Program-made: the position numbers and the translations under genes
Part shown: one piece after another, positions 36,848 through 62,148 of the stretch
How positions within the stretch are numbered: position 1 is the first letter of the stretch
Layout: every line of letters starts with the position of its first letter
Virus record (IMG/VR): IMGVR_UViG_3300011115_000650
DNA: 64,000 bases
Strand: one strand, 5' to 3'
DNA from: a virus
Notes under the pieces: model-generated
What the model was told of the DNA's origin: nothing
What the model saw: the letters and a program-made list of their open reading frames with translations, nothing else
The model's database searches: none

Positions 36848-37174
36848 TTACTTCACCTCCTCTAGGATTATATAACCATCTATATCCTTATCATGGCGAG
36901 TTGTAACATAGGTTAAGGTAACAGTCTTGTATACACTACTGCCGTGTTCATTAGGCATATACCTCACTCTATTTGATACAGTAGTACCTGTACTATACTT
37001 TACTACCTTACGACTACCTTCTACACCATACCACTCTACTAACTGCTTAGCCCAATTCCATACCTCATCTCCTTTACGTACTGGCGTACCTTCATCACAA
37101 GCATCAGGATAGATACGCTTTGTATTCTTTTTAATTAGATTGATTGCATGTACTGCTTCTTTGTAAACTGACAT
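36848..37174 (-). CDS. Early hypothetical protein
   Basis: Directly downstream of an early promoter copy. Confidence 0.65.
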   Translation of the reverse strand: MSVYKEAVHAINLIKKNTKRIYPDACDEGTPVRKGDEVWNWAKQLVEWYGVEGSRKVVKYSTGTTVSNRVRYMPNEHGSSVYKTVTLTYVTTRHDKDIDGYIILEEVK

Positions 37175-37229
37175 AGTATTTGTTTTTGATTGTACCTAAA
37201 TATAGGATATTGGATTCATACTACCAACT

Positions 37230-37832
37230 TTATTTACCTCTCATCTTGGCTACTGCCTCTGCTAGTTCATCGAAGTCCTCAAAGGTAACCACTTGGTCAT
37301 TTATCTTGATACCCTTCTCAGTCACCTCTGCTATATAATCATCGGAGATATGTACGTGAATTGGTTTAGGTCCTTTATGTACTAGTCGTACTGATTGGAG
37401 TGGATAGTAATAGTCATTACCCTTTCCATCTAATTGAACACCAGCATTATCTGGTACTTCAGTAACAACACACTCCTCACCTATAGCATTATCCATATCC
37501 TTAGACCACCTATTATCCCAACCTAACTCATAACTAGGTACCTTATGAGTAACCTTTACTATGTCACCTACTTCCAGTGTACTTCTTTCTACTAAGATAG
37601 CATGGATACTCTTCTCCTTCTCCTTTACCTCTTCTACCTTGATTAAGTCTGATGCTTCATAGCTATTAGCACCTCCATTACTCCAATCAACATAGTAAGG
37701 TAAACTACCATCCTCTCCTTCAATACGAGCTATCACACCTTCAACATCTTTTGGATTATACTTACTAATACCATAGTACTCTGACGACACACTAATCATT
37801 ACTTTATCACCTACTTTTAATTTCTTATTCAT
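37230..37832 (-). CDS. Early protein with two KOW/SH3-like modules
   Basis: KVGDKVMI and EVGDIVKV. Confidence 0.6.
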   Translation of the reverse strand: MNKKLKVGDKVMISVSSEYYGISKYNPKDVEGVIARIEGEDGSLPYYVDWSNGGANSYEASDLIKVEEVKEKEKSIHAILVERSTLEVGDIVKVTHKVPSYELGWDNRWSKDMDNAIGEECVVTEVPDNAGVQLDGKGNDYYYPLQSVRLVHKGPKPIHVHISDDYIAEVTEKGIKINDQVVTFEDFDELAEAVAKMRGK

Positions 37833-37865
37833 AATGTTTATTTTTAATTGATTTATCTAAAGATA

Positions 37866-37886
37866 AGAAGAAGGCCCCTAAGGGCC
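37866..37886 (-). terminator. Terminator hairpin embedded in a promoter spacer
   Basis: GGCCC-TTAG-GGGCC followed by TTCTTCTT. Confidence 0.55.
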
Positions 37887-37894
37887 AACTTTAA

Positions 37895-38233
37895 TTATTG
37901 GCCTCCTAGGTAATCTGTTATAGAATTTTCAATAGCATCTCTAACCTTATCACATATACCTCCTAAATCTAAATCTACACTATCTAATTCTAATTTGTTA
38001 TCGTAGCTAATCTCAAATTGAGCACTACTTAAATCAACCACATCATCTGTACTAGCATCCTCTATAACACTACTTACTCTATCACTCACTACCTTGATTA
38101 ATAAATCAACCTGATCTTTATCTAATCCTTTCTCTTCCTCCTGGATACCTTTAATGATACTGATTACTTGTTCTTGACTGTAGAAGCTCGGTAATTGGCT
38201 TTCTAATAACTCGATTGTTTGTTGTTTGTTCAT
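37895..38233 (-). CDS. Early acidic hypothetical protein
   Basis: Own promoter copy; D/E-rich. Confidence 0.65.
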   Translation of the reverse strand: MNKQQTIELLESQLPSFYSQEQVISIIKGIQEEEKGLDKDQVDLLIKVVSDRVSSVIEDASTDDVVDLSSAQFEISYDNKLELDSVDLDLGGICDKVRDAIENSITDYLGGQ

Positions 38234-38292
38234 AACGTTTTTTATTTTTTGATTATACCTAAATATAGTTACTTTGTTTCATACTACCAACT

Positions 38293-38580
38293 TTAAATTT
38301 TAAAAATCTGAATATAATCTTCACCATCTCCATTCATATCCATCGCCCATTTCAAGAAAGATTTTGTAGGATTTTTAGGCTCTTTTCCTGTTTCCTCTAC
38401 TTCTGTATCCATCCAACTTCTAAAATCGAAAGTATCTTCAATCTTTTTGATTACTTGCTTACCTGTTGCTTCAAATAAATCAGGACCCTCTCCTCCATAT
38501 CTTTCATATTCTTCTATACTAACTAAATAAGTTTCCTCTGGAATAATACTTGTGAATTTGATTGACTTTAATTGTTTCAT
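38293..38580 (-). CDS. Early hypothetical protein
   Basis: Own promoter copy. Confidence 0.65.
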   Translation of the reverse strand: MKQLKSIKFTSIIPEETYLVSIEEYERYGGEGPDLFEATGKQVIKKIEDTFDFRSWMDTEVEETGKEPKNPTKSFLKWAMDMNGDGEDYIQIFKI

Positions 38581-38655
38581 AATTTGTTATTTTTTGATTA
38601 TACCTAAATATAAGATATACTATCCAGACTAACAACTTTATTTGGTAACTTTTTT

Positions 38656-38775
38656 TTAATGCCTCAAGCAAGAATGTCCTGGAGGAAAGAAAGTATAAGC
38701 ACGAGTGCCTATTCTAGGAGAGCAGCTTGATAAAGCGATAACGATTAATACTGTAATGACTACTAATTGTTTCAT
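38656..38775 (-). CDS. 39-aa lipoprotein (not in ORF track)
   Basis: MKQLVVITVLIVIALSSCSPRIGTRAYTFFPPGHSCLRH*; LSSC lipobox; own promoter. Confidence 0.65.
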   Translation of the reverse strand: MKQLVVITVLIVIALSSCSPRIGTRAYTFFPPGHSCLRH

Positions 38776-38833
38776 GATTTGTTATTTTTTGATTGTTTAT
38801 TAATATACCTAAATATAGTTACTTTGTTTCATA

Positions 38834-39061
38834 CTACCAACTTTTATTTAATAAAGTCTGGAAATTATTCCCTACTAATTCACGAGCCTTCTCTTCATCA
38901 AATCCTTCACCTGCAGGCTTAGTCTCATCATAGCAGTACTTATCTAATAGCTCTTCTGAATCAGTTCTAAACCTCTCTCCATTACATAATTCGATAATAA
39001 AAGTTCTACCTGTAGCTGGATTGAATGTAGAGGTAGGAGTAAGTTTTGTGATTGTAGACAT
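38834..39061 (-). CDS. Early hypothetical protein
   Basis: Own promoter; last codons and stop lie within the next promoter. Confidence 0.6.
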   Translation of the reverse strand: MSTITKLTPTSTFNPATGRTFIIELCNGERFRTDSEELLDKYCYDETKPAGEGFDEEKARELVGNNFQTLLNKSW

Positions 39062-39118
39062 ATTTTTTATTTTTTGATTATACCTAAAGATAAGTTAAAT
39101 GATTTAAACTACCAACTT

Positions 39119-39184
39119 TTATTTAATATTATTTTTATTAATACTAACGATAAAGATGATGATTAAAATGATTACTACTGTCAT
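39119..39184 (-). CDS. 21-aa hydrophobic micro-peptide (not in ORF track)
   Basis: MTVVIILIIIFIVSINKNNIK* exactly fills the space between two promoter copies. Confidence 0.45.
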   Translation of the reverse strand: MTVVIILIIIFIVSINKNNIK

Positions 39185-39247
39185 ATTTTTTATTTTTTGA
39201 TTGTACCTAAAGATAAGTTAAATGATTGAGACGAGCAACTTTATTTA

Positions 39248-39406
39248 TTACACTAATTCATTTTCTATAATTGTGTAAGTTTTTCCTGAACAGTAAAGTC
39301 TAGCATAGTCAAGAGCTTTATCGTAGGTTGTAAAACTTTTAACATCGTCGCGAAAGATTTCAACATCGTCAGAAAAGAATGGAATAACAGTGTAAATTTT
39401 TTTCAT
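39248..39406 (-). CDS. 52-aa early protein (not in ORF track)
   Basis: MKKIYTVIPFFSDDVEIF...IIENELV*; own promoter. Confidence 0.65.
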   Translation of the reverse strand: MKKIYTVIPFFSDDVEIFRDDVKSFTTYDKALDYARLYCSGKTYTIIENELV

Positions 39407-39469
39407 TTTTTTATTTTTTTTTAATTATAACTAAATATAGGGTAAATGATTGAGACGAGCAACTTTATT

Positions 39470-39661
39470 TTATTTATTTCTACGATACGCCTGATAGTCT
39501 AAGATACATTCTATAACCTCTTCTTCTTCTAATTCCTCACCTGGGTACTCTTCGAAATTATATATCAAAGATTCTACGTAGTCGAAATCATCAGCTTCAT
39601 CAAGAGATAATCCATGAGCATCTAGCCAATTGAAGACCTGTGTTTTTAAGCTTACTATCAT
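39470..39661 (-). CDS. Early acidic protein (start revised to MIVSLK)
   Basis: The upstream extension is the translated promoter. Confidence 0.65.
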   Translation of the reverse strand: MIVSLKTQVFNWLDAHGLSLDEADDFDYVESLIYNFEEYPGEELEEEEVIECILDYQAYRRNK

Positions 39662-39750
39662 ATTTGTTATTTTTTGATTATACCTAAAGATAAGATATAC
39701 TATCCAGACTAACAACTTTATGTTAAATTATTTTAGACAAAGAAAGAGTA

Positions 39751-40245
39751 TTAAGCCTTCTTCCTCTTAGCGTCTCTTAATGCTTGCTTATGCGCTTCTG
39801 ATAACGGTTTACCTTTCTTAGATAGACTACATTTCTTTCTTATCTCTTCAGTCCTTTCGTAAGGCACCTTACCCTCCATCCACTTTTCAACAACCTCCCT
39901 AGGTATCTTTCTACCTGTCAAGGTCTTAGATATCTTAGCTTTAGTCTCTTCGCTTAACCTACCCGCCCTAAAATGCAAAGGAGTATACCTTAAATTCAAC
40001 CCCTCATCTAATACCTTAAAATGCTCCTGCCAAAACCTCTCCCTCTCATTAAGCTCTTCTAGAGAACATTCCTCTAAAACTTCGAACGTGTGACTATCTA
40101 CTGCGTACTTAAGAAAAGATGCATGTAACTTAGGCTGTCCCTTGCACCCACACTTTTTATAATGACGCCACCTTCCTTGTATATCTGTACTCTGACCGAT
40201 ATAGACCCTACCCTTAGGGTTCATAATTTTGTATATTCCTATCAT
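39751..40245 (-). CDS. GIY-YIG homing endonuclease with NUMOD3-like repeats
   Basis: MIGIYKI...VYIGQS..I..RW..Y; ERE; LSEETKAKIS, LSEAHK. Confidence 0.9.
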   Translation of the reverse strand: MIGIYKIMNPKGRVYIGQSTDIQGRWRHYKKCGCKGQPKLHASFLKYAVDSHTFEVLEECSLEELNERERFWQEHFKVLDEGLNLRYTPLHFRAGRLSEETKAKISKTLTGRKIPREVVEKWMEGKVPYERTEEIRKKCSLSKKGKPLSEAHKQALRDAKRKKA

Positions 40246-40337
40246 AAAAAAAGCCTCTGATTACTGTAAAGATCTGGTACATCTCTACAATGAAAAAGAG
40301 GCTAATAAGTTTTAGCATTCGAACAGGTACCAGCTAT
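40246..40337 (-). promoter_or_regulatory. Structured 5' leader of the homing endonuclease (hairpin plus possible pseudoknot)
   Basis: AGCCTCT/AGAGGCT outer stem, inner stem, loop GTACCAG complementary to upstream CTGGTAC; T-run directly before ATG. Confidence 0.55.
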
Positions 40338-40372
40338 TCTATATAATATAAATAGCTATAAAGTACTACTTT

Positions 40373-41170
40373 CTAACAATATTCTTCAGCTAATTCAAAT
40401 AACTTTTCATTTAAAGCTACATCGGCTTGGATATTTACAATCTTTCGAACCCTCCTCTCCTTCTTGTCTGCTCCTATCATCGTAAATCCGCCTCTCACTA
40501 AACGCTCCTGTACACGATTTAAAGTAACCCAGATACTCGATCCATCATCCTCAGCTCTAGTAGAGGTTAAGACCTGATTGATTTCATAATCATCTACTAA
40601 TCTTTCTTCGCCAAATCTAGCTTGGATGGCTTTATAAGCGAATGATCTTTGCTCATCTGGTGTCATCATAGTCTGAGAGAATACATTAATCTTCTCTACC
40701 ATCTTAGGTAAGCTCTCTACAACACTCTGTACCAGCTTCTGAAGATCTTCGAAGGTATATCCAAAGTGACGTAAGCTGAATTCACCTAAGTCCTTACTCT
40801 TTACAATCAATCCATTTGAACAGATCATACGAAAGATACCAACAGAGAACTTTAACTTACCCCAACCTCTTGCATTGTTCTGAATCAAGATCTGAGGATA
40901 GGCCTCAATCTCACCTTGATCATCTTTGATAAAGATATCTGGATGATAGAATACTACCATATGTTTACCGAACTTCTTTTGAATCTGGTTCTTAGTCTTC
41001 ATCGTCTTAGCATCCGATACCTGCCATCCAAGCTTTGCCATATCATCTACGATTTGATGAGTGGGTAAGAAGACATACTTCTCTGATACCTGATCATAAG
41101 GCTTTGTGGTGTAGACCTGTGGTGCTCTTTCTTTGATTTGCTCTGGTGTTAATGTTACTAATTTTTGCAT
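40373..41170 (-). CDS. DUF932/DUF945 family protein
   Basis: VSEKYVFLPT, KHMVVF, GIFRMICSNGL, W.TLNRVQE. Confidence 0.8.
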   Translation of the reverse strand: MQKLVTLTPEQIKERAPQVYTTKPYDQVSEKYVFLPTHQIVDDMAKLGWQVSDAKTMKTKNQIQKKFGKHMVVFYHPDIFIKDDQGEIEAYPQILIQNNARGWGKLKFSVGIFRMICSNGLIVKSKDLGEFSLRHFGYTFEDLQKLVQSVVESLPKMVEKINVFSQTMMTPDEQRSFAYKAIQARFGEERLVDDYEINQVLTSTRAEDDGSSIWVTLNRVQERLVRGGFTMIGADKKERRVRKIVNIQADVALNEKLFELAEEYC

Positions 41171-41247
41171 AATGTCTGTATTGTTTTTATTATTTAACTA
41201 AAGATACGATAAAGTATTCATACGAGCAACTTTATTTTAATTTAGTC

Positions 41248-41341
41248 ATACAGGGTATAGTCTAACCGCCTTAATTATTCCAGAGACTCACCTAGTTTTA
41301 TCGGCCGATTATTGACTAGGCTTAGGCTTTATACCCTGTAT
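41248..41341 (-). ncRNA. Putative ~94-nt structured RNA
   Basis: 12-bp perfect terminal inverted repeat ATACAGGGTATA/TATACCCTGTAT; inner CCTAGT/ACTAGG stem. Confidence 0.45.
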
Positions 41342-41350
41342 AACGATATG

Positions 41351-41440
41351 TAGTCAGGACAGGATTCGAACCTGTTAGGAGTTATTGACTATTACCTCCG
41401 CCGCTCACTCGGTGCGTCTAACCAATTCCGCCACCTGACT
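41351..41440 (-). tRNA. tRNA-like RNA (class II/Leu-like body, anticodon undetermined)
   Basis: Acceptor AGTCAGG/CCTGACT, D region TGGCGGAATTGGTTAGACGC, T arm ACAGG-TTCGAAT-CCTGT; no canonical anticodon arm; no encoded CCA. Confidence 0.7.
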
Positions 41441-41450
41441 ATTTTATAAC

Positions 41451-41561
41451 CTACATTCTATTATGATAGAACCAGGTTTTGCTATGTGAAGGACAATTTG
41501 TACTTCTGCAACTTGTAAGACCTAAAACTACTACTGCTAATACTGCTAATACTTTTTTCAT
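41451..41561 (-). CDS. 36-aa lipoprotein (not in ORF track)
   Basis: MKKVLAVLAVVVLGLTSCRSTNCPSHSKTWFYHNRM*; LTSC lipobox; own promoter. Confidence 0.7.
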   Translation of the reverse strand: MKKVLAVLAVVVLGLTSCRSTNCPSHSKTWFYHNRM

Positions 41562-41629
41562 AACTTTTAATTTTTGTTTGTTTTTTAATATACCTAAATA
41601 TATGAACCTTATTTCAGACTACCAACTTT

Positions 41630-41824
41630 TTATCCTAAAAATACTGCTCTATCTTTACTAAATTTTGTACTCACATTTAATTCAGTAGCCCACTCATAGA
41701 ATGATGCAGTAACATAGCCTCCAACCGTTCTTCTACTAGGAGTAGGGACTGGAGTACCTCTTTTCTTCTTACCGACGATATTGCGTTTTGCTTTTAAGAC
41801 CAGTGTTGTGATTTGACGTTTCAT
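41630..41824 (-). CDS. Early basic hypothetical protein
   Basis: Own promoter copy. Confidence 0.6.
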   Translation of the reverse strand: MKRQITTLVLKAKRNIVGKKKRGTPVPTPSRRTVGGYVTASFYEWATELNVSTKFSKDRAVFLG

Positions 41825-41880
41825 AACTTTTTTATTTTTGATTTATCTAAAGATAGGATATTGGATTCAGACGAGCAACT

Positions 41881-42138
41881 TTATTTCTCTAAAGATTCCA
41901 TAAATTCTTGCATAGTATCTTCCTCACCTTTAAAATAACCTAATACTTCAAACTTACCTTTTTCCATATCGGAAATTAAAATACCTAAACTCTCATAACT
42001 GTCAATCACAGCTATCAAATCCCCCATACCTTTAAAATGATCCTGGTATTCATTTAATGTAATATCGTAGCGTCTATCAGACCATAGTTGAATTGCATTA
42101 CCTACTAAATTTTCTTTTGCACTTGATAATAATGACAT
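41881..42138 (-). CDS. Early hypothetical protein
   Basis: Own promoter copy. Confidence 0.65.
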   Translation of the reverse strand: MSLLSSAKENLVGNAIQLWSDRRYDITLNEYQDHFKGMGDLIAVIDSYESLGILISDMEKGKFEVLGYFKGEEDTMQEFMESLEK

Positions 42139-42199
42139 ATTTTTTATTTTTTGATTATACCTAAATATAGTTACTTTATTTCAGACTACCAACTTTATT

Positions 42200-42397
42200 T
42201 TAAAACTCTCCTAATTTTAATCCATTCCAAAGTTCATCTAATCTCTCATCTGAAATCCTAACTGTAGTATCTGGACATTCTGAGATTAACATTCTAACAA
42301 GTCTCAATCTTTTAGAAGCCATTTCCGGATTAGTTGTAAGTTCTATTTCCATATCTTCTAAATGGCTAAGAACTATTATGCTTACTTTTGTTGTCAT
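42200..42397 (-). CDS. Early hypothetical protein
   Basis: Own promoter copy. Confidence 0.65.
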   Translation of the reverse strand: MTTKVSIIVLSHLEDMEIELTTNPEMASKRLRLVRMLISECPDTTVRISDERLDELWNGLKLGEF

Positions 42398-42457
42398 ATC
42401 TTTTATTTTTGATTATACCTAAATATAGCTACTTTATTTCATACTACCAACTTTATT

Positions 42458-42610
42458 TTACCAATTATACCACCTAAAACTTTTACTACCGCATTTACAT
42501 TTAAACTCTCTAGCCCATTTCTTTAATGTAAAATTGTACTTTCTGCGAGACTCTTTACCGCAGCTATGACATTGACACTTTTTAACTTCCAAATGATGAT
42601 TATTAGCCAT
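42458..42610 (-). CDS. 50-aa zinc-ribbon protein (not in ORF track)
   Basis: MANNHHLEVKKCQCHSCGKES...FKCKCGSKSFRWYNW*; own promoter. Confidence 0.65.
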   Translation of the reverse strand: MANNHHLEVKKCQCHSCGKESRRKYNFTLKKWAREFKCKCGSKSFRWYNW

Positions 42611-42672
42611 ATCTTTTATTTTTGATTATACCTAAATATAGGTACTATTATTCAAACGAGCAACTTTAACAC

Positions 42673-42697
42673 AAAAAAAAATCCCCTAGAAAGGGGA
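42673..42697 (-). terminator. Intrinsic terminator
   Basis: TCCCCT-TTCT-AGGGGA followed by T9. Confidence 0.8.
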
Positions 42698-42732
42698 CTT
42701 AGTGGTGTTGTCATAAGATAGGGTTAGGACAA

Positions 42733-42969
42733 TTAAGCTGATAATACAGCTACTTCTGTTTTAAGGCGAGATACCAATTGGGCGTTGGTTAATCTACGGT
42801 TCGCCATTCGGTAAGCGGCTGAGGTGATTGAAGAATTGAATCTTCTGCCATTCATTACATTGCTAACGTGAGATACTGAGTACCCACTCTCTGTGGCTAG
42901 CTTGGTTAGATCTCCTCTACGTCTCTTTTGCTGAAACTTAGCTACCTTTGTGATTTCTGTTAAATTCAT
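42733..42969 (-). CDS. Small helix-turn-helix DNA-binding protein
   Basis: GDLTKLATESGYSVSHVSNVMNGRR (XRE-like HTH). Confidence 0.7.
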   Translation of the reverse strand: MNLTEITKVAKFQQKRRRGDLTKLATESGYSVSHVSNVMNGRRFNSSITSAAYRMANRRLTNAQLVSRLKTEVAVLSA

Positions 42970-43035
42970 ACTGCTTGTTTTTATTTACTATTTTAATATA
43001 AGGACTCTGATTCAATCGACCAACTTTATTTTTTT

Positions 43036-43395
43036 TTAATCTTTATGATTTAGAGTAGCCCAGAAGTAGATAAAACCTATCAGGGATACTAATAAGAATA
43101 TACCATCTAGCCCTAAGAAGAATAATATTACAGAATCGATGTCTCCCTGTAAATTACAGAGGATAATTACTTGGATGATAAGTCCTATACAAAACAGGCC
43201 AAACGCTCTCTTTCCTATTCTCTCCCCTGTCTGGCTATCTGGCTTCCTACCCTGTAGCCTAGCGTAACAATCGTATATACCATTCCATCCAGCTCCTATG
43301 ATAAAGTATACAACTAGGGTTATGATTAAGAACTTCAAGGTCTCAACTATACCATCAAGTAGGGCTAGGGTCGAAGATTTGTTTTGATCTGACAT
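43036..43395 (-). CDS. Membrane protein (3 predicted TM helices)
   Basis: Three hydrophobic segments. Confidence 0.6.
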   Translation of the reverse strand: MSDQNKSSTLALLDGIVETLKFLIITLVVYFIIGAGWNGIYDCYARLQGRKPDSQTGERIGKRAFGLFCIGLIIQVIILCNLQGDIDSVILFFLGLDGIFLLVSLIGFIYFWATLNHKD

Positions 43396-43417
43396 AGCAG
43401 TTTAATGTTTTAAAGGT

Positions 43418-43669
43418 TTAATATTCTTCTTCTACATCGAAGTTATCCTCTTCCTCATACACTTCATTCTCTACATTGGCTAGGAATGTATCCAAGTTAT
43501 TCAATAGGCCATCAAATGGCTTTTCGATCATAGCTACAAAGTCTGATTCCTCGACCGAGCTAAAGCCAACCGTAGCAGCATCAATGCTAGCATTCTCTCT
43601 TAGGGTTTCTAATTGCTCTCTTAACTCCTGTAATAGTTCTACTTTTGAATTTTGTTTCCTTCTTGACAT
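43418..43669 (-). CDS. Acidic hypothetical protein
   Basis: C-terminus EVYEEEDNFDVEEEY. Confidence 0.6.
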   Translation of the reverse strand: MSRRKQNSKVELLQELREQLETLRENASIDAATVGFSSVEESDFVAMIEKPFDGLLNNLDTFLANVENEVYEEEDNFDVEEEY

Positions 43670-43692
43670 ATGATTTTTATTTTTATTGATTG

Positions 43693-44022
43693 TTAATTAA
43701 TTTCACTACCTGTCTCTCCTAATAGTATTCTTTCAGCATACCAATAACTCACATCCTCCATCGGCATCGTCATCATCAACTGACGCAGCATCTGTTCTTC
43801 CATATGATTAGCCTTTAGATACTCTTGCATATCCTCTCCTGTCATCTCTGCTAACTCCATATCATCCTCATATATCCAATTAGCATAATTATCCTTACCC
43901 TCTACCTGAACTCGATAAGAACTATCCTCACCTGCCTCGGTAATAAATCCTACATCACCTTTCTTTAGTATCGATTGACGTGCATCTAATACTCTTACTT
44001 TTTGACCTACTCTAAATTGCAT
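43693..44022 (-). CDS. Early protein with KOW/SH3-like module
   Basis: FRVGQKVRV...GDVGFI; own promoter. Confidence 0.6.
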   Translation of the reverse strand: MQFRVGQKVRVLDARQSILKKGDVGFITEAGEDSSYRVQVEGKDNYANWIYEDDMELAEMTGEDMQEYLKANHMEEQMLRQLMMTMPMEDVSYWYAERILLGETGSEIN

Positions 44023-44097
44023 ATTTTTTATTTTTATTGATTATACCTAAATATATGAACTACTATTCGTACTAACAACTTTATTTTAACTAATTTT

Positions 44098-44132
44098 AAA
44101 AAAGAGGCCACCCCGTAGAAACAGGGCAGGCC
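44098..44132 (-). terminator. Intrinsic terminator
   Basis: GGCC-T-GCCCTGT-TTCT-ACGGGGT-GGCC followed by a T-run. Confidence 0.65.
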
Positions 44133-44149
44133 GTTTTTACAATCAAAAA

Positions 44150-45046
44150 TTACGAGTTTAAAGAATATTCACCATCCACCTCTTCCTCCTTCTCCTCAAC
44201 CAAAGTTCCATAATGAATATCCTGATTATTTAGTTGGTAAGTAAATTTAATACCTGCTTGACCGTTTCTATTTTTTGAGAACATAATATAAGTTCCTCCT
44301 CCCTCTCTCTCCCCTTCCCTCTTTAATTCCATATGCGCATCTGTGATATGCTTAATCTTATTTGAACCTACAAACACTCCTGCTTTAGTTACTTGTTGGA
44401 TTAATAGGAATGAAGTATACTTTCCTAATTCATTATTAGCTTCATTATGCTCAACGCATAAATCAACCAACCACTTCTCTGCCTGGCTCTGAGACATACT
44501 AGCATCCTCTTTAACCGATTCTAATACCTCAACTATACTATCGATTAGGATATAGTCATATCCCTTTTTAAACAACTGCTCTATAACTTCCTTAGAGTTA
44601 TAATTCATGAAATCAGAAGTAAAGATAGTCTCCAAGTTACCAAAAATTGGAAACCTTTGAGTATACTTAAACATTTGAATCTTTGACATCTCAGCACAAA
44701 CAAACAAACATTTTAATTTAGGATTCTTTAACTGTAAACTAGCCAAGGTATGTAGCAATACAGTCGTTTTACCAACCCCTGGATCTCCTGTAGCCATTAT
44801 ATTAGTTCCTACTGGAACACCTCCCTCGTATGAGAAGATAGTATCCAATACCAACCCTGTTTTATTTATTTTTAACATGTTGGAGTTTATATTAATATGA
44901 TCCAACTTTACTACCTTACCGAAGTCTATGACTTGAGGTACTTTAGGCTCCATAACCTGGCCTGATTTTCTTACTAGGTACTCTTCAAGAGTTAATCCTA
45001 GATCTTTTGCTTTTTTAGTAGCGTAATACTTTTGTGTGTAAGTCAT
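44150..45046 (-). CDS. RadA/Sms-like (RecA/KaiC fold) ATPase
   Basis: Walker A GDPGVGKTT, AEMS, ILIDSI, VTKAG.F.GS..IKH..D, KNRNG. Confidence 0.8.
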   Translation of the reverse strand: MTYTQKYYATKKAKDLGLTLEEYLVRKSGQVMEPKVPQVIDFGKVVKLDHININSNMLKINKTGLVLDTIFSYEGGVPVGTNIMATGDPGVGKTTVLLHTLASLQLKNPKLKCLFVCAEMSKIQMFKYTQRFPIFGNLETIFTSDFMNYNSKEVIEQLFKKGYDYILIDSIVEVLESVKEDASMSQSQAEKWLVDLCVEHNEANNELGKYTSFLLIQQVTKAGVFVGSNKIKHITDAHMELKREGEREGGGTYIMFSKNRNGQAGIKFTYQLNNQDIHYGTLVEEKEEEVDGEYSLNS

Positions 45047-45119
45047 GTTGTAATTTTTTGATTATACCTAAATATAGGTTAAATGTTTCAGACTAGCAAC
45101 TTTATTTTAAAATAATTTT

Positions 45120-45227
45120 CTACTCTTCATCACTTTCAAATACACAATGTTCATAACATTCAGGACATATACCTATGTCTTCTGAAGTAACCTCTGCTAC
45201 CGCTCCGCAACAATTTGATGTTATCAT
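45120..45227 (-). CDS. 35-aa Cys-rich metal-binding peptide (not in ORF track)
   Basis: MITSNCCGAVAEVTSEDIGICPECYEHCVFESDEE*; own promoter. Confidence 0.7.
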   Translation of the reverse strand: MITSNCCGAVAEVTSEDIGICPECYEHCVFESDEE

Positions 45228-45287
45228 ATCTTTTATTTTTGATTATACCTAAATGTACGAACTTTATTTCAGACTAGCAACTTTATT

Positions 45288-45542
45288 TTAAAAATCTTTC
45301 CAAGTAGTATGCTTACTTCTTATTTCTAGGTATTCAAAATGCTCTGCTAATTGGAAAATATCCATACTAAATTCCATCTCTTCACACATACTACTTACTT
45401 CAACTTCACAATCATACCAAGCAACTTCTTTGTCCCATCTACTATCTTTTATAACATCAGAACCTAAAATTTTAATAACATCATGTTTCATGATAATTAC
45501 CTGACTGTCTAATACTAAATTTTTTGTGCACTTTAATAGCAT
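45288..45542 (-). CDS. Early hypothetical protein (start revised to MLLKCT)
   Basis: The upstream extension is the translated promoter. Confidence 0.6.
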   Translation of the reverse strand: MLLKCTKNLVLDSQVIIMKHDVIKILGSDVIKDSRWDKEVAWYDCEVEVSSMCEEMEFSMDIFQLAEHFEYLEIRSKHTTWKDF

Positions 45543-45576
45543 ATGTTTTAATTTTTGATTGTACCTAAAGATAAGT

Positions 45577-45594
45577 AAAAGGCCCCGAAGGGCC
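45577..45594 (-). terminator. Terminator hairpin embedded in a promoter spacer
   Basis: GGCCC-TTCG-GGGCC-TTTT (cUUCGg tetraloop). Confidence 0.7.
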
Positions 45595-45614
45595 AACTAT
45601 TTTGTAAACTTTTT

Positions 45615-45899
45615 TTAATTTATTTTGCTAAAGCAAAACCTTGTACCTTGGTAATAGCCTCCGTAATATCCCACTCTTCCAGTATTAAGCCTAGCATAAT
45701 GGAATTTAAAACCTCTTTTTTCCATTTCAGTAACCACAGCTGCTTTTTGCGAATCAGTAACCTGTAATCCACAAAATTTAACTCCGACAGCTTTTTGACC
45801 TTTTGGTTTACGGCTATCTGAGAATACATACCTACCTGTTCCTAAATTTAAACTTTTTAAAACCTTTCTTAATTCAGACGTAACTGTTACTTTTGACAT
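45615..45899 (-). CDS. Early basic protein (start revised to MSKVTV)
   Basis: The upstream extension is the translated promoter. Confidence 0.6.
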   Translation of the reverse strand: MSKVTVTSELRKVLKSLNLGTGRYVFSDSRKPKGQKAVGVKFCGLQVTDSQKAAVVTEMEKRGFKFHYARLNTGRVGYYGGYYQGTRFCFSKIN

Positions 45900-45955
45900 A
45901 TTATTTAATTTTTGATTATACCTAAATATAGCTACTTTATTTCGATTAGGCAACT

Positions 45956-46189
45956 TTATTTTTCTGGGTCTTCAGGTACTATAAATATGCCAATTTCTGG
46001 TACATCAACTTCCTTACCGGCAAGTTCATCAATGAAATACATTCTACCATCCTCTCCTTCAAACATCATATCATCAGTCCAATCCTCTACGTTATTAAGA
46101 ACACTAAATATGATATCTCCTCTCATAGAAGACTCAGTTCTACCCCTGTTATCAATAGTTTCTGTGCAACAAATAATTTTAATTGCCAT
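45956..46189 (-). CDS. Early acidic hypothetical protein
   Basis: Own promoter copy. Confidence 0.65.
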   Translation of the reverse strand: MAIKIICCTETIDNRGRTESSMRGDIIFSVLNNVEDWTDDMMFEGEDGRMYFIDELAGKEVDVPEIGIFIVPEDPEK

Positions 46190-46246
46190 GTTTTATTATT
46201 TTTTGATTATACCTAAATATAGGATATTGGATTCAGACTACCAACT

Positions 46247-46726
46247 TTATTTTGCAAAAGTTTTAATAATTGCTTTCATTTCACCTAATTCCTTTTTCAA
46301 CTTCTTCATATCATATGAACCTTTACAAGCAGTTTTATAACCCTCCTCTGAACCAAATACCTCAATAAACCTAGCACATTTTTCTTTCCAATATTCTCCT
46401 TCTAATTCAGAAGCCCATTTGTATCCAAAATCATTAAAGTCTCTTGAATCTCCTAAACTAATACCATTCTCAGTCATATTAGCAATATTCAACATCCTAT
46501 CCCCTATTATCGATAATAAATCCTGGGAAGTAAAATTGTAATTATTTTTCATAGCATGAAAGTTAACACCTACATTTGAAGTATCTACTCCTACTCCTGC
46601 CCTACACCATACCTTGTAATGATCAAATGGTCTAATATTCTCCCACATACCATCTGAGATTTGACCTGATAATTCATTTTTGAATAATGCTACTTGGATT
46701 TGATTTGCGAAATTAATCTTGTTCAT
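46247..46726 (-). CDS. Early hypothetical protein (start revised to MNKINF)
   Basis: ELSGQISDGMWEN motif; the upstream extension is the promoter. Confidence 0.65.
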   Translation of the reverse strand: MNKINFANQIQVALFKNELSGQISDGMWENIRPFDHYKVWCRAGVGVDTSNVGVNFHAMKNNYNFTSQDLLSIIGDRMLNIANMTENGISLGDSRDFNDFGYKWASELEGEYWKEKCARFIEVFGSEEGYKTACKGSYDMKKLKKELGEMKAIIKTFAK

Positions 46727-46804
46727 ATTTGTTATTTTTTGATTATACCTAAAGATAAGAAATAGGGAGCAATATTCCAACTACTCCCTAAACTTTTTTT
46801 TAAA

Positions 46805-47083
46805 TTAAATTGCTAGAGGAGCTTTTGAAGCAACTTCATCCATAAAATTTAAAGCCTCTTCATCTGACATCAACATTCCATCATACTCTAAATGCACTGA
46901 AAGCCTAACATCATTATGCAGTAGACAATCTTCTAATGCAGCATAGACAGCTAAATTATCATAGGCCGATAAATCCATTTCAGCAACATAATCGTCTGCA
47001 CTATCTTTCTCAATTCCAAATCCCATTTTAGCATAAGCTTCAATTTCGCTAACATCGATAAAAGCAAATAATTTTTTTGTCAT
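46805..47083 (-). CDS. Early acidic hypothetical protein
   Basis: Own promoter copy. Confidence 0.65.
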   Translation of the reverse strand: MTKKLFAFIDVSEIEAYAKMGFGIEKDSADDYVAEMDLSAYDNLAVYAALEDCLLHNDVRLSVHLEYDGMLMSDEEALNFMDEVASKAPLAI

Positions 47084-47143
47084 ATTGTTTATTTTTGATT
47101 AGACCTAAATATAGGCTTTTAATTTTAGACTACCAACTTTTTT

Positions 47144-47305
47144 TTAAATAAAATCTGAAATAAATTCATCTACTTCCTCCTCACTTTCTAGAGCTAAAAA
47201 TAAATCTCTCCCATTAATTCCTAAATTCTCCTCTATAGCATTTTCAATTTCTGAAGATCTAACTGTTCCAAATTTTGTCTCTAAATAGCTAATTGCTGTA
47301 AACAT
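47144..47305 (-). CDS. 53-aa acidic protein (not in ORF track)
   Basis: MFTAISYLETKFG...ESEEEVDEFISDFI*; own promoter. Confidence 0.65.
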   Translation of the reverse strand: MFTAISYLETKFGTVRSSEIENAIEENLGINGRDLFLALESEEEVDEFISDFI

Positions 47306-47361
47306 ATTTTTTATTTTTGATTAGACCTAAATATATGAACTAGTATTCAGACTACCAACTT

Positions 47362-47559
47362 TTATTTTAAACTATATTCTAATTGTTTGAATAGATTATA
47401 GCCTGTAGGAGAGGGGAAGTAACGCTGAAACCAATTCGATACTGTTAGATAAGGTATAGTCTCTTGATTGACAAATTCCTCTCCAAAGCATTGACAGGCA
47501 TAAGGATATTCTTTGGCTAGATGTAATCGAACTTGGTTGGTTTCAAATGAAGTTATCAT
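47362..47559 (-). CDS. Early hypothetical protein (start revised to MITSFE)
   Basis: The upstream extension is the translated promoter. Confidence 0.6.
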   Translation of the reverse strand: MITSFETNQVRLHLAKEYPYACQCFGEEFVNQETIPYLTVSNWFQRYFPSPTGYNLFKQLEYSLK

Positions 47560-47641
47560 ATTAATTTGTTTTTGATTATACCTAAAGATAAGTAATAGGG
47601 AGCAATTAAACAACTACTCCCTAAACTTTTTTTAACCTCTA

Positions 47642-47887
47642 CTAGTACTTAACTAACTCTGCAGAATTTACAAATACTAGAGCTCCTAAATCCTCTTGCG
47701 CACTTTCCTCTAAAATTTCTACTTCAAACCACTCCCAAGTTTCTGGCTTATCTAATTCCGGAGCTATTCCCTCCATAGCTTTAGAACAAGTACTAGGCCC
47801 TTCCTCAAACTTAACCTCTCTAACTACTCTAACTTTATCTTCCCATAGCGTAACATACTCTTCTCCTACTTTAATTTTGCTTTGCAT
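47642..47887 (-). CDS. Early hypothetical protein
   Basis: Own promoter; IKVGEEYV. Confidence 0.65.
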   Translation of the reverse strand: MQSKIKVGEEYVTLWEDKVRVVREVKFEEGPSTCSKAMEGIAPELDKPETWEWFEVEILEESAQEDLGALVFVNSAELVKY

Positions 47888-47952
47888 ATTTTTTATTTTT
47901 TGATTATACCTAAATATAGTATATTGGATTCAAACGAGCAACTTTATTTTGA

Positions 47953-48177
47953 TTATTCTTCGGAATAAATCTCCCATTCCTTTCTTAAATTGCTTTTAAA
48001 AGTTTCCTGAGAAGCTTTATCTAAATCCTCAAATCCAATTTCAAATTCATCTCTCAATATCTCATCAAAACCTTCAATACTCTCCTTAATATAGGATTTC
48101 TTATTAGGATAATCTCCTGGGAAATTATCATCGAAGAAAAATTCATTTACAAATTGGGTAATTTTTTGATTTTGCAT
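47953..48177 (-). CDS. Early acidic hypothetical protein
   Basis: Own promoter copy. Confidence 0.65.
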   Translation of the reverse strand: MQNQKITQFVNEFFFDDNFPGDYPNKKSYIKESIEGFDEILRDEFEIGFEDLDKASQETFKSNLRKEWEIYSEE

Positions 48178-48238
48178 AACTTTTTATTTTTGATTATACC
48201 TAAATATAGATTAATTATTTCAGACTAGCAACTCTTTT

Positions 48239-48394
48239 TTAATAGGGTAGAGAAACTCTTCTATCCCTCCTCCTATCATAGGCCTTCTTATTCCTATGGA
48301 CTCTGTGCCTGGAAACTCTTTGACCTGTCTCCAATTCGATCTGCCTGGAAACCTTTCTTTGAAGGGAAGTGATTAGGGAAGCTTCTACTCGCAT
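48239..48394 (-). CDS. 51-aa Arg-rich protein (not in ORF track)
   Basis: MRVEASLITSLQRKVSRQIELETGQRVSRHRVHRNKKAYDRRRDRRVSLPY*; own promoter. Confidence 0.6.
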   Translation of the reverse strand: MRVEASLITSLQRKVSRQIELETGQRVSRHRVHRNKKAYDRRRDRRVSLPY

Positions 48395-48831
48395 ATAACT
48401 CTTTTTTGATTATACCTAAATGTATGAACTAGTATTCAGACTAGCAACTCTTTTTTAGAAAGGTATTAAACTCTTTTATAGGTAATAGAGACTTCCGAAC
48501 ATAGCGATAGAGACCTACTACTAAGTCTCTTTGAATAATTTTGATTGAACTCTTTTTTGTACTCCAAGAACAACAGTGTGAGGGTTTGGTTATAAAGTTT
48601 CTTATACGGCACCTGTCCGGCTTAACCTCTGTTCTTCTTTTGTACTATTATAAATAGGCACCTCCAACTCTTTTTTAACTCTTTTTTTAAAGGTGCCTAA
48701 CTCTTTTTTAGAAATAAACTCTTTTTACTAGACCCTTTCATCTCCCTTAGCTAAACTCTTTTTTGTATAAAGGTATAGCCTACACATGGAGCATTTAATC
48801 TCCCCAGGCTATGAAAGGGCTAGCAATAGAA

Positions 48832-49125
48832 TTAGATCAGGCCTAGATTCTTAGCCCTCACATAACCAACCTCCTTACCCGTTTTTGGATTGAGATACTT
48901 TTGTTTGGTCTTAGGTAAACTCTTTTTAGGGCTTACAACTCTTTCTTTGTCTACAACTCTTTTTTCATGAGTGTTAGCGAATGTACTAATCTGGATAGTA
49001 CTACCTGGTAATTCACCTCTTTCTAACTCTTCTACCATTATTGGATTGTATTCCGAATGCTCGGTATCGAAATGCCATATCGAACTCGTACCATCCTCTG
49101 ATTTGTAATGTCTTTGAAATTTCAT
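48832..49125 (-). CDS. Early hypothetical protein
   Basis: 97-aa ORF behind a promoter variant. Confidence 0.55.
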   Translation of the reverse strand: MKFQRHYKSEDGTSSIWHFDTEHSEYNPIMVEELERGELPGSTIQISTFANTHEKRVVDKERVVSPKKSLPKTKQKYLNPKTGKEVGYVRAKNLGLI

Positions 49126-49206
49126 AACTGTTTTTTTATTTTTATAAAGATAAGGAAAAGAAAGGAGACTAGCAACTAATCTCCTAACTCTTTTTTCAAC
49201 TCTTTT

Positions 49207-49488
49207 TTACTTCCCGCTATAATTAGCAGGGTCGGTTATAATCGCAATCGTTCTCTCAACCGCCTGATCTAAATTAATTTTCCCTAATTCTAAATCCTCC
49301 CTCATTGCAATTAACGAATCCGCCATCCCATTATTAAAATAGCCTTTAGGGACTTTTATTCCTTTATTTTCTGGAATATTACCCTCTACAAATTCCTCAA
49401 TTACAACCTCCCCAAATACATCCGGGCCGGCTTTTACATTTTCTAAACTCCAAACTGAAATTGCATTTTTTAAATTTTCCTTCATCAT
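49207..49488 (-). CDS. Early hypothetical protein (first gene of the cassette array)
   Basis: Preceded by two tandem promoter copies. Confidence 0.65.
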   Translation of the reverse strand: MMKENLKNAISVWSLENVKAGPDVFGEVVIEEFVEGNIPENKGIKVPKGYFNNGMADSLIAMREDLELGKINLDQAVERTIAIITDPANYSGK

Positions 49489-49938
49489 ATTGTTTATTTT
49501 TGATTATACCTAAATATATGAACTCTTTTTCGACTTTCCAACTCTTTTTTTAATTAATTTAAAATATTTTTTTTATTTTATTTCCCTCCCTAATTAATTA
49601 ATATACCTAAATATAGGGGCTTATTTTCAAGTCGCCAACTCTTTTTTTGGGTTTTAACTCTTTTTTCCTTTTGTCTAATAAAGGCAGGTAAAGGGTAGAA
49701 ATTGTCTAATATAGTATGGGGAACTGTATATATTTTCTAAATTTCCTAAGGAAGTTGGACGTCTGAGACAGGCTAGCCTCGGTACCAGGTTCTTTATTTA
49801 TAAACGTTCCCCCTTTTTTTCTATACATCTTCACTCTCCATTCCTACCTATTAGTGTTTTTCCTTACCTCTCCTCTCTTTCCCCGTTTCTATATTTTCTA
49901 CTTCCTACTTTTTTTATACACTATCTCCTTCCCTCCAC

Positions 49939-50803: not shown

Positions 50804-50858
50804 TGTTGTTTTATTATAAACTAAAGATAAGAATTTTATTTTGACTAAGCAACTTTAT

Positions 50859-59898: not shown

Positions 59899-59899
59899 A

Positions 59900-61308: not shown

Positions 61309-61310
61309 GT

Positions 61311-62147: not shown

Positions 62148-62148
62148 T

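Follow-up and report, generated by a model that had tools for sequence, protein, structure and literature searches.

A promoter-headed gene-cassette array in a freshwater phage and its probable turnover by homologous recombination

Between 36.8 and 49.65 kb, the minus strand of the 64,000-nucleotide viral sequence IMGVR_UViG_3300011115_000650 (the whole of which is called the window here) carries an array of small genes headed by copies of a repeated, predicted promoter element of 60-75 nt (28 strong and about six degenerate copies), and close relatives differ in their cassettes with most breakpoints at this element. The best explanation, which we regard as probable in its entirety, is that the window belongs to a large freshwater myovirus distantly related to Flavobacterium phage immuto and that the array is a hyperplastic early-gene region with homology-driven cassette turnover at its promoters, the promoter doubling as a recombination site that swaps accessory genes. 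The system is not an integron. It resembles the promoter-early stem-loop (PeSL) cassettes found in hyperplastic regions of T4-type phages (Arbiol et al. 2010, PMC2839356; Comeau et al. 2014, PMC4122927) and occurs in a new phage group with a new promoter class.

The repeated element and its genes

The repeat array is confirmed. Repeat finding returned families of 26-28 copies, and a weight matrix built from 25 copies gave 30 minus-strand peaks at a threshold of >=15 bits, 28 of them scoring 37-82 bits, with none on the plus strand of the window, outside 37.2-51.8 kb or in five shuffles. With four further degenerate copies (50826, 49150, 42997 and 37861) the total is about 33-34, and the 32 lying inside 36848-49648 match the count of a first-pass annotation, whose repeat coordinates were also correct, all on the minus strand, and whose motifs read in the minus-strand sense.

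The element consists of AAATAAAGTTG (-33), AGTCTGAA, a variable 10 nt, TATATTTAGG (-7) and then TATAATCAAAAA(A)TAAAAAATATG. Conservation does extend beyond the -33 and -7 boxes, as had been observed, the high-information columns of the matrix being AGTTG, AGTCTGAA and TATATTTAGGTATAATCAAAAA. The near-exact spacer duplicates reported earlier (38590/39670, 38245/38803 and 37183/46200) hold at 23-24 of 24 positions (P39688/P38608, 23/24; P38813/P38263, 24/24; P46217/P37200, 23/24). The distance from core to ATG is 26-29 nt in 27 of 33 units, and in 26 of 32 gaps the upstream stop ends 30-57 nt ahead of the next core, a distance of 0-25 nt to AAAGTTG. The nine stops listed earlier either coincide with the TAA of AAATAAAGTTG or are at most 2 nt away from it. 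Stop codons are present in all three frames of the element, so that the upstream ORF is always closed.

About 38 small ORFs, all co-oriented, lie in the array with one to three per promoter copy. A unit of one promoter and one small ORF, as first described, is found in most cases but not in four, which contain two or three ORFs or an ORF and a tRNA-like gene. Purifying selection acts on the ORFs, with a pooled pN/pS of 0.28 for those <=160 aa, against ~1 for overlapping alternative frames. Almost all lack a known family, and by analogy their products would mostly act in host takeover or counter-defence. The array is partitioned by a few predicted intrinsic terminators, five of them built into promoters as predicted hairpins.

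Features are listed below from the head of the array to its end; promoters and hairpins are predicted, (-) is the minus strand, WM marks location by the weight matrix, and "missing from" refers to relatives.

36848..49648 (-) whole array: 32 promoter elements, ~38 ORFs
50804..50858 (-) P50826, degenerate outlying copy preceding a 251-aa ORF
49594..49643 (-) P49611, degenerate copy heading the array (18 bits); no ORF directly behind
49489..49546 (-) P49514, promoter and leader, WM
49207..49488 (-) ORF, 93 aa, no family
49126..49185 (-) P49150, degenerate promoter; its -33 box is crossed by a terminator-like hairpin, 49163-49185
48832..49125 (-) ORF, 97 aa
48395..48452 (-) P48420, promoter and leader, WM
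48239..48394 (-) ORF, 51 aa; missing from L029, L032
48178..48236 (-) P48204, promoter and leader, WM
47953..48177 (-) ORF, 74 aa; missing in 6/6 close relatives covering the site
47888..47946 (-) P47914, promoter and leader, WM
47642..47887 (-) ORF, 81 aa; missing from L003, L100, L088
47560..47623 (-) P47586; 12-pair hairpin 47596-47623 around the -33 box (promoter-terminator composite)
47362..47559 (-) ORF, 65 aa
47306..47363 (-) P47331, promoter and leader, WM
47144..47305 (-) ORF, 53 aa; missing from 7 close relatives and the Logan contigs of X5, X6 (runs)
47084..47141 (-) P47109, promoter and leader, WM
46805..47083 (-) ORF, 92 aa
46727..46790 (-) P46753, promoter; 11-pair hairpin 46763-46790
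46247..46726 (-) ORF, 159 aa
46190..46249 (-) P46217, promoter and leader, WM
45956..46189 (-) ORF, 77 aa; missing from L003, L100, L088
45900..45958 (-) P45926, promoter and leader, WM
45615..45899 (-) ORF, 94 aa
45543..45601 (-) P45569, promoter; GC hairpin 45581-45594 between the boxes
45288..45542 (-) ORF, 84 aa; missing from L029, L032, L099
45228..45285 (-) P45253, promoter and leader, WM
45120..45227 (-) ORF, 35 aa
45047..45104 (-) P45072, promoter and leader, WM
44150..45046 (-) ORF, 298 aa, RecA/RadA(Sms)-like P-loop ATPase; homologues in 17 loci
44108..44129 (-) intrinsic-terminator-like hairpin 3' of the ATPase gene
44023..44083 (-) P44051, promoter and leader, WM
43036..44022 (-) three ORFs behind one promoter
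44022..43693 (-) first ORF behind P44051, 109 aa, paralogue of the 200-aa ORF
43669..43418 (-) second ORF behind P44051, 83 aa
43395..43036 (-) third ORF behind P44051, 119 aa
42970..43029 (-) P42997, degenerate promoter
42733..42969 (-) ORF, 78 aa; homologues in 36 loci
42679..42700 (-) intrinsic-terminator-like hairpin
42611..42668 (-) P42636, promoter and leader, WM
42458..42610 (-) ORF, 50 aa; skipped by a run X5 contig (joint 42460|42669)
42398..42455 (-) P42423, promoter and leader, WM
42200..42397 (-) ORF, 65 aa
42139..42197 (-) P42165, promoter and leader, WM
41881..42138 (-) ORF, 85 aa; missing from L090, L024; unrelated 72-aa ORF instead in L038
41825..41883 (-) P41851, promoter and leader, weaker copy, WM
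41630..41824 (-) ORF, 64 aa
41562..41630 (-) P41598, promoter and leader, WM
41451..41561 (-) ORF, 36 aa
41350..41440 (-) tRNA-Leu(GAG), ARAGORN call; no Rfam match
41171..41234 (-) P41202, promoter, weaker copy, WM
40373..41170 (-) ORF, 265 aa, DUF932; homologues in 32 loci
39751..40245 (-) ORF, 164 aa, GIY-YIG and NUMOD3 homing endonuclease without its own promoter copy
39662..39720 (-) P39688, promoter and leader, WM
39470..39661 (-) ORF, 63 aa; window only
39407..39467 (-) P39435, promoter and leader, WM
39248..39406 (-) ORF, 52 aa; window only
39185..39243 (-) P39211, promoter and leader, WM
39119..39184 (-) ORF, 21 aa, hydrophobic
39062..39120 (-) P39088, promoter and leader, WM
38834..39061 (-) ORF, 75 aa
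38776..38845 (-) P38813, promoter, leader interrupted, WM
38656..38775 (-) ORF, 39 aa; missing from L090, L025, L069
38581..38640 (-) P38608, promoter and leader, WM
38293..38580 (-) ORF, 95 aa; missing from L090, L069
38234..38295 (-) P38263, promoter and leader, WM
37895..38233 (-) ORF, 112 aa
37833..37893 (-) P37861, degenerate promoter; GC hairpin 37873-37886
37230..37832 (-) ORF, 200 aa, phrog_11307, weak SH3-like matches
37175..37232 (-) P37200, final promoter of the array, WM
36848..37174 (-) ORF, 108 aa, final cassette; missing from G001, L069, L090
13386..14054 (-) YqaJ-like recombination nuclease of the lambda-exonuclease type, encoded outside the array; a candidate for the exchange

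Cassette differences among relatives

The comparison set comprised 15 close metagenomic relatives, mostly of >90% identity with some cassettes at 76-89%, and structural differences were counted among relatives of >83% identity. The array is not fixed in these relatives: 19 distinct structural differences were found, and 14 of 37 ORFs are variable when only relatives covering the ORF in question are counted. Nor are the breakpoints unrelated to the repeat, since 28 of 38 are no more than 10 nt from a promoter element, against 7.6 expected (28 was reached in 0 of 20,000 randomisations), and the promoters at junctions are in-register chimeras. The other ten breakpoints are at the array end (36841), the homing-endonuclease site (40341/40373), the tRNA-like gene (41346/41414) and, for five, at 13-20 nt from an element. 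Junctions differ in where the crossover falls (-33 box, core or leader), and this movement along the repeat indicates that the process is homology-driven and not site-specific.

Close relatives are collinear and differ by presence, absence and replacement of cassettes (unpolarised), as in L038, where an unrelated 72-aa ORF substitutes for the cassette between the same promoters. The proposal that genes are gained, lost or reordered holds among close relatives for its first two parts, together with replacement; cassette families are reordered only at ~70% identity and below, as judged from protein clusters that include some multi-copy families. An 85-aa family, for which the window has a place downstream of the ATPase gene, is just upstream of that gene in eight loci. 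The presence/absence matrix is mosaic, alleles of 76-84% identity occur within backgrounds of 95-98%, and the 200-aa ORF has an ~83% allele in relatives with flanks ~95% identical.

The relatives are mostly represented by short contigs, metagenomic or de Bruijn, that are liable to mis-join at repeats, and the variants could in principle be assembly chimeras produced by collapsing or mis-joining near-identical promoters; every long relative contig ends inside the array, where assemblers struggle, and the Logan contigs were built on a graph of k=31, a length that some promoter stretches exceed. This origin is hardly credible, however, as the 47148|47303 junction recurs in two additional runs and in seven contigs that come from different samples, and as the variants hold novel cassettes of their own with consistent haplotype divergence, which mis-joining does not make. 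Logan contigs of independent freshwater runs show the same joints 47114|47346 and 47592|48218, along with the additional promoter-to-promoter joints 42460|42669, 38243|38787 and 41575|46745.

Selection, homing and site-specific recombination

Breakpoint enrichment alone cannot separate mechanism from selection of viable products, because whole-gene indels must break between genes and the intergenic DNA of the array is nearly all promoter. Selection alone might hold promoters and leaders at their optimum, with illegitimate recombination or replication errors arising anywhere and only whole-gene removals surviving. That selection acts on the sequence is certain, given that the same boxes are kept in immuto and in phages with proteins only 30-50% identical. 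As the sole cause it is nevertheless unlikely: ten junctions have 26-98 nt common to both parental flanks in exact register, L090 holds an extra 90-aa cassette between two copies of the P39088 promoter type, probably neutral spacer variants are common to promoters up to 9 kb apart, and the leader is homogeneous within one genome while differing between the window and immuto, which fits concerted evolution.

The GIY-YIG homing endonuclease (40245..39751) might drive the variability through double-strand breaks and co-conversion of flanks in mixed infection. Its gene is found in the window only, being missing in 4/4 close relatives covering the site, which have other DNA there, and both breakpoints are off promoters. 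Such an effect accounts only for the neighbourhood of 39.2-40.4 kb, however, and the majority of variable cassettes are 2-9 kb distant and occur in relatives without the gene, making it a very unlikely general cause.

The array had also been called integron-like and homology-driven, of which the latter is borne out by the moving crossover, whereas the former is only a loose analogy. As in integron cassette arrays, tandem single-gene units vary in presence, absence and order, and a site-specific recombinase acting at a fixed core site of the repeat could be encoded outside the window, which is part of a ~160 kb genome. The resemblance in layout is superficial, however: Pfam or PHROG scans of 45 larger and 34 small ORFs detected no tyrosine or serine recombinase, in keeping with the earlier remark that no integrase is visible in the window, and no attC-type site was found either; attC-like dyad symmetry is lacking in 29 of 34 elements. 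The crossover is homology-dependent and varies in position among junctions, and every cassette comes with a promoter, whereas in integrons the cassettes share the single Pc promoter. A true integron-like system is therefore extremely improbable.

Proposed mechanism

Each predicted strong host-type promoter is joined to a fixed leader of ~20 nt, which is A-rich, lacks a Shine-Dalgarno motif and is followed by ATG, and each copy would express one to three small accessory proteins early in infection. Promoter activity and strength, start sites and early timing are predicted from sequence. Since all units begin with the same 60-75 nt, any two copies, in one genome or in co-infecting relatives, could undergo homologous or short-homology recombination, by which whole units would be deleted, inserted, replaced or moved, and every exchange would restore the promoter, the leader and the start codon intact. 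The candidates for catalysing it are the YqaJ-like exonuclease with a partner, the RecA/RadA-like ATPase and, acting locally, the GIY-YIG endonuclease; we infer these enzymes, as well as circular intermediates and cassette functions.

Relationship to known systems

The comparison with PeSLs made at first reading is apt (PMC2839356, PMC4122927). In both systems a repeated strong host-type early promoter, predicted in the present case, precedes ORFan genes concentrated in a plastic region, the upstream stop lies in an AT-rich flank and the next start codon at the element's 3' end, and some copies are promoter-terminator composites. Where close relatives differ by an indel or a replacement, the element marks the limits of the change and a single chimeric copy remains. 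Unlike PeSLs, which have E. coli -35/-10 boxes with a Shine-Dalgarno motif, the elements here have Bacteroidota -33/-7 boxes without one; only 5 of 34 contain a significant stem-loop; T4 core genes were not recognised in the window; the units are packed far more densely and regularly (~33 in 13 kb, one orientation, fixed leader length); and, as regards mini-circles, a search for a circular contig found none.

Bacillus phage SPO1 has a host-takeover module of early genes in its terminal redundancy with many strong early promoters, and resembles the array in having ~13 kb of small co-oriented early genes, each or nearly each with a strong host-sigma promoter (predicted in the array); we know of no description of promoter-mediated cassette turnover there. 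In halovirus HF2, intergenic repeats of 29-58 bp are promoters (PMC8707807), as the repeated intergenic elements are predicted to be here, but HF2 is an archaeal virus whose relatives strongly conserve both the repeats and their locations, and the repeats are not sites of turnover.

Promoter class and likely host

The boxes (-33 TTG and -7 TAnnTTTAG) fit the TTG/TAnnTTTG promoter of Bacteroidota, TAnnTTTG being a Bacteroidetes promoter motif (PMC10309648). Minus-strand matches to the generic pattern GTTG-N19-21-TAnnTT[TA][AG] number 39, of which all except one are within 37.2-56.6 kb, and the plus strand gives two. Only 3 of 63 ORFs are preceded by a Shine-Dalgarno-like motif, and the leaders are 51% A. 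The host is most likely Flavobacterium or another member of Bacteroidota. The promoter was not found in 67.7 kb of G001 nor in the first 31 kb of G002; 285 distinct instances are spread across 87 other loci. In the cultured phage immuto, whose host is Flavobacterium sp. LMO8, there are at least 24 copies on one strand with identical boxes and a different leader, situated in ~15 kb of small hypothetical genes that include DUF932.

The promoter element and its placement

Every gene of the window is on the minus strand, which is also the sense in which the motifs of the first-pass annotation are given; the pattern AAAGTTG...TATAAT found no match on the plus strand because the array sits on the minus strand. 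The repeated promoter array claimed by that annotation is real, as seen by two approaches: repeat finding recovered families of 26-28 copies with a unit of 58-75 nt, and a weight matrix made from 25 copies and applied to the whole window gave 30 minus-strand peaks, 28 of them at 37-82 bits, with none on the plus strand, none beyond 37.2-51.8 kb and none in shuffled sequences. Degenerate extra copies occur at four positions (50826, 49150, 42997 and 37861). The element has the consensus aAAATAAAGTTG-g/cTAGTCTGAA-N10-cTATATTTAGGTATAATCAAAAA(A)TAAAAAATATG, within which all three frames are closed by stop codons.

The placement of the element is regular. The distance from the core to the ATG is 26-29 nt in 27 of 33 units, and that from the preceding stop to the next core is 30-57 nt in 26 of the 32 gaps between consecutive units. 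At the nine sites where a stop had been noted beside or inside the next AAAGTTG, it is indeed the TAA of AAATAAAGTTG or lies at most 2 nt away, and the spacers singled out as near-exact duplicates are identical at 23-24 of 24 positions. The copies therefore did not arise mainly by simple local tandem duplication: neighbouring promoters are no more similar to each other than randomly chosen ones (permutation p = 0.33). An inverted-repeat search around the array returned one weak 30-nt pair only.

Promoter class, probable host and predicted early region

Read as TTG-N20-TAnnTTTAG, the element agrees with the Bacteroidetes promoter motif (PMC10309648) and fits a predicted host-type promoter. The minus strand of the window has 39 occurrences of the generic form of the pattern and the plus strand two; with 38 of the 39 confined to 37.2-56.6 kb, we read 37-57 kb as the predicted host-polymerase (early) region, of which the array is the densest part. 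Only three of 63 ORFs are preceded by a Shine-Dalgarno-like motif and the leaders are 51% A, as expected for a Bacteroidota host.

The nearest cultured relative of the carrier is Immutovirus: among cultured phages, the best match to the largest protein (2054 aa) comes from the 160-kb Flavobacterium phage vB_FspM_immuto (hereafter immuto), and matches to the T4 core in the window are limited to one gp6-like baseplate wedge and a primase. The window promoter matches an intergenic site of immuto, in which GTTG-N20-TATATTTAGG recurs at least 24 times on one strand within about 15 kb of small hypothetical genes, including one DUF932 gene. The boxes are identical in the two phages but the leader differs (mostly TATCAATAATTAAAAC in immuto); the leader is thus uniform within a genome and different between lineages. 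The array had no Megablast match among cultured phages, and the three immuto isolates, which are about 100% identical with no indels over the 18 kb compared across the array, therefore provide no variation to draw from. Beyond the close relatives, the window-type unit itself occurs in 87 other metagenome and virus contigs, with 285 distinct instances. In the public RNA runs X19 and X20, only 6-7% of the sampled words were present.

Cassette genes

A family could be found for four of the about 38 ORFs in the array, which also contains a putative tRNA gene:

array, minus strand: RecA/RadA(Sms)-like ATPase, 298 aa
array, minus strand: DUF932 protein, 265 aa
array, minus strand: phrog_11307 protein, 200 aa, with a 109-aa paralogue also in the array
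39751-40245, minus strand: GIY-YIG + NUMOD3 homing endonuclease, 164 aa, without its own promoter copy
41350-41440, minus strand: tRNA-Leu(GAG), 91 nt, from ARAGORN

The remaining 34 small ORFs have no Pfam and no PADLOC matches, and two of them match PHROGs of unknown function. They are nevertheless real genes, since the pooled pN/pS against close relatives is 0.28 as compared to about 1 in overlapping alternative frames.

Several observations concern individual cassettes. Rfam gave no match in 35-52 kb at E-values up to 0.1, the ARAGORN tRNA included; the very high contig depth at 41350-41440 comes from tRNAs of other organisms, and the stretch 41237-41414 is exchanged for other DNA in two related contigs, L019 and L038. 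The endonuclease gene is present in the window only, its place in relatives being taken by about 540 bp (L038:330-1000, L025:450-1100) that carry two terminator-like hairpins and in which the array strand has no ORF reaching 30 aa; this stretch may represent a non-coding RNA or an endonuclease-free allele. The SH3-like family of the 200-aa and 109-aa ORFs has nine copies in the 94-kb virus contig L011 (IMGVR_UViG_3300008448_000024).

Turnover of cassettes among relatives

Scanning metagenomes for the promoter yielded 93 further stretches, mostly from lakes and rivers. The close relatives comprise 15 loci, with most segments more than 90% identical and some cassettes 76-89%, and show 19 distinct structural differences. 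A promoter element lies no more than 10 nt from 28 of their 38 breakpoints (7.6 expected; 28 was reached in none of 20,000 randomisations) and no more than 20 nt from another five; the rest are at the homing-endonuclease site, the tRNA-like gene and the end of the array. In an array as compact as this one, however, gene-sized indels necessarily break in promoters, with or without homology. What speaks for homology is therefore the sequence shared at junctions, the exact register, the duplicated promoters on the flanks and the scattered sharing of spacer variants. At ten junctions, 26-98 nt are common to both flanks, and the crossover falls in the -33 box (the upstream TTG), the core or the leader depending on the junction, with the register always kept.

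Individual contigs illustrate these exchanges. G001, a 67.7-kb virus contig, spans 1-37879 of the window, stops within the array and lacks exactly the last cassette, while L003, a 35-kb IMG/VR contig, comes into the array from the opposite side, also ends within it and lacks three blocks, with a chimeric promoter at each junction. Among other related contigs, L090 has an extra 90-aa ORF between two copies of one promoter type, L038 has a 72-aa ORF in place of the 85-aa cassette with the same promoters on either side, and in L029 a 58-aa ORF is joined within TATAATCAAAAA. In the presence/absence matrix, 14 of 37 ORFs are variable and seven occur in the window only; it also reveals cassette alleles of 76-84% identity amid backgrounds of 95-98%. 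The order of cassette families changes in lineages of about 70% identity. In eight loci the 85-aa family directly precedes the ATPase gene, whereas the window has it 3 kb downstream, and further families also switch sides.

The window stretch is present in public runs of 13 studies, mostly freshwater. Logan contigs from four runs carry the joints 47114|47346 and 47592|48218, identical to those of L003, and the other joints, 42460|42669, 38243|38787 and 41575|46745 (a 5.2-kb skip), are all promoter to promoter. The depths of these contigs are uneven enough to mask any doubling that a terminal repeat would give. A backward joint, 45294>42671, again promoter to promoter, was seen in run X6 and may reflect a circle, a tandem duplication or rearrangement in a relative; none of the contigs analysed shows the overlapping ends that a circle would give.

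Four long contigs of close relatives (G001, G002, Ga0114963_10000139 and Ga0304729_1001336) all stop within the array, which fits short-read assemblies being broken by repeats and strain heterogeneity. Upstream of the array, L003:4970-6883 corresponds to 50048-50803 of the window (about 1.9 kb versus 0.74 kb) and contains a 40-49% identical homologue of the 251-aa ORF and three additional ORFs. In three runs the contig depth at 50.0-51.0 kb is high, which suggests that a domain encoded there is widely shared.

Comparison with known systems and possible mechanism

An integron was considered and rejected. No intI tyrosine recombinase was found in the 64-kb window, attC-type imperfect palindromes with dyad symmetry and a fixed crossover point are absent, the crossover being variable, and nearly every cassette has its own promoter, whereas integron cassettes are promoterless and read from one common Pc.

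The best reading of the array is a hyperplastic early region like those built on the promoter-early stem-loop elements (PeSLs) of T4-type phages (PMC2839356, PMC4122927). As with PeSLs, the element by its sequence combines a host primary-sigma consensus with an AT-rich flank and an upstream stop, its copies are restricted to the array, directly 5' of ORFans in a plastic region, and close relatives differ by indels and replacements that have their ends at the element and leave a chimeric copy. Unlike the T4-type PeSLs, the array is mostly without stem-loops and much more regular. Seven terminator-like hairpins occur on the coding strand, five of them built into promoters (P49150, P47586, P46753, P45569 and P37861, numbered by window position). 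Only these 5 of the 34 elements fold well below shuffles: four have z < -2, and P45569, whose GC stem has five pairs, reaches z -1.8. The remaining 29 are unstructured and the mean z is -0.3, so that a stable stem-loop is not a general part of the element.

In such a PeSL-like region, the predicted strong early promoters would also act as portable homology for recombination, and each exchange would thereby carry a gene together with its expression signals and leave a working junction. Candidate enzymes are the RecA/RadA-like ATPase, locally the homing endonuclease, and a nuclease encoded elsewhere in the window:

13386-14054, minus strand: YqaJ-like exonuclease, between a primase (14048-14992) and a 323-aa ORF (12400-13371, minus strand)

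The 323-aa ORF could be the partner annealase; the ESM Atlas provided no lead for it, and hence no annealase is assigned. A more speculative extension, which we regard as rather unlikely, is that the promoter-leader unit serves as a dedicated docking site of a pan-array common to many divergent freshwater Flavobacterium phages, with cassettes travelling as promoter-bearing circles or through co-infection and captured by short-homology recombination with phage enzymes, either the YqaJ-type exonuclease and a partner or the array-borne ATPase. Such traffic would account for the uniformity of the leader within a genome, and the array would then be a functional equivalent of an integron without an integrase.

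Promoter-mediated shuffling is already known from T4-type phages of Proteobacteria, and the array is a variant of it that differs in phage lineage, host phylum and promoter class; in a literature search of incomplete coverage, no description for Flavobacterium phages was found. With about 33 consecutive units it is an unusually clean case, for which lake and river metagenomes provide direct population evidence for the gain, loss and replacement of single accessory genes at the promoters. The compact consensus for a predicted strong Flavobacterium phage early promoter and translation leader is a possible genetic tool, and the about 38 small proteins under selection are candidates for host takeover or counter-defence. 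Immuto, having the same architecture and a cultured host, offers a model open to experiment.

Other features near the array

In 1.4 kb at 48230-49663 (minus strand) there are 20 same-strand copies of AAAGAGTT, mostly as AAAAAGAGTT, against 5.4 expected in the entire window. They take the place of the usual AAATAAAGTTG flank at the first five promoters and also fill the ORF-poor gap 48420-48832, the site of a 9-bp inverted repeat; the cluster could serve as an array for protein binding or as an origin. The stretch 58723-63545 (minus strand), upstream of the predicted early region, holds a run of glycosyltransferase- and methyltransferase-like genes (GtrB-like protein, Glycos_transf_2, Methyltransf), and the sugar-modification genes of immuto occupy the same relative position.
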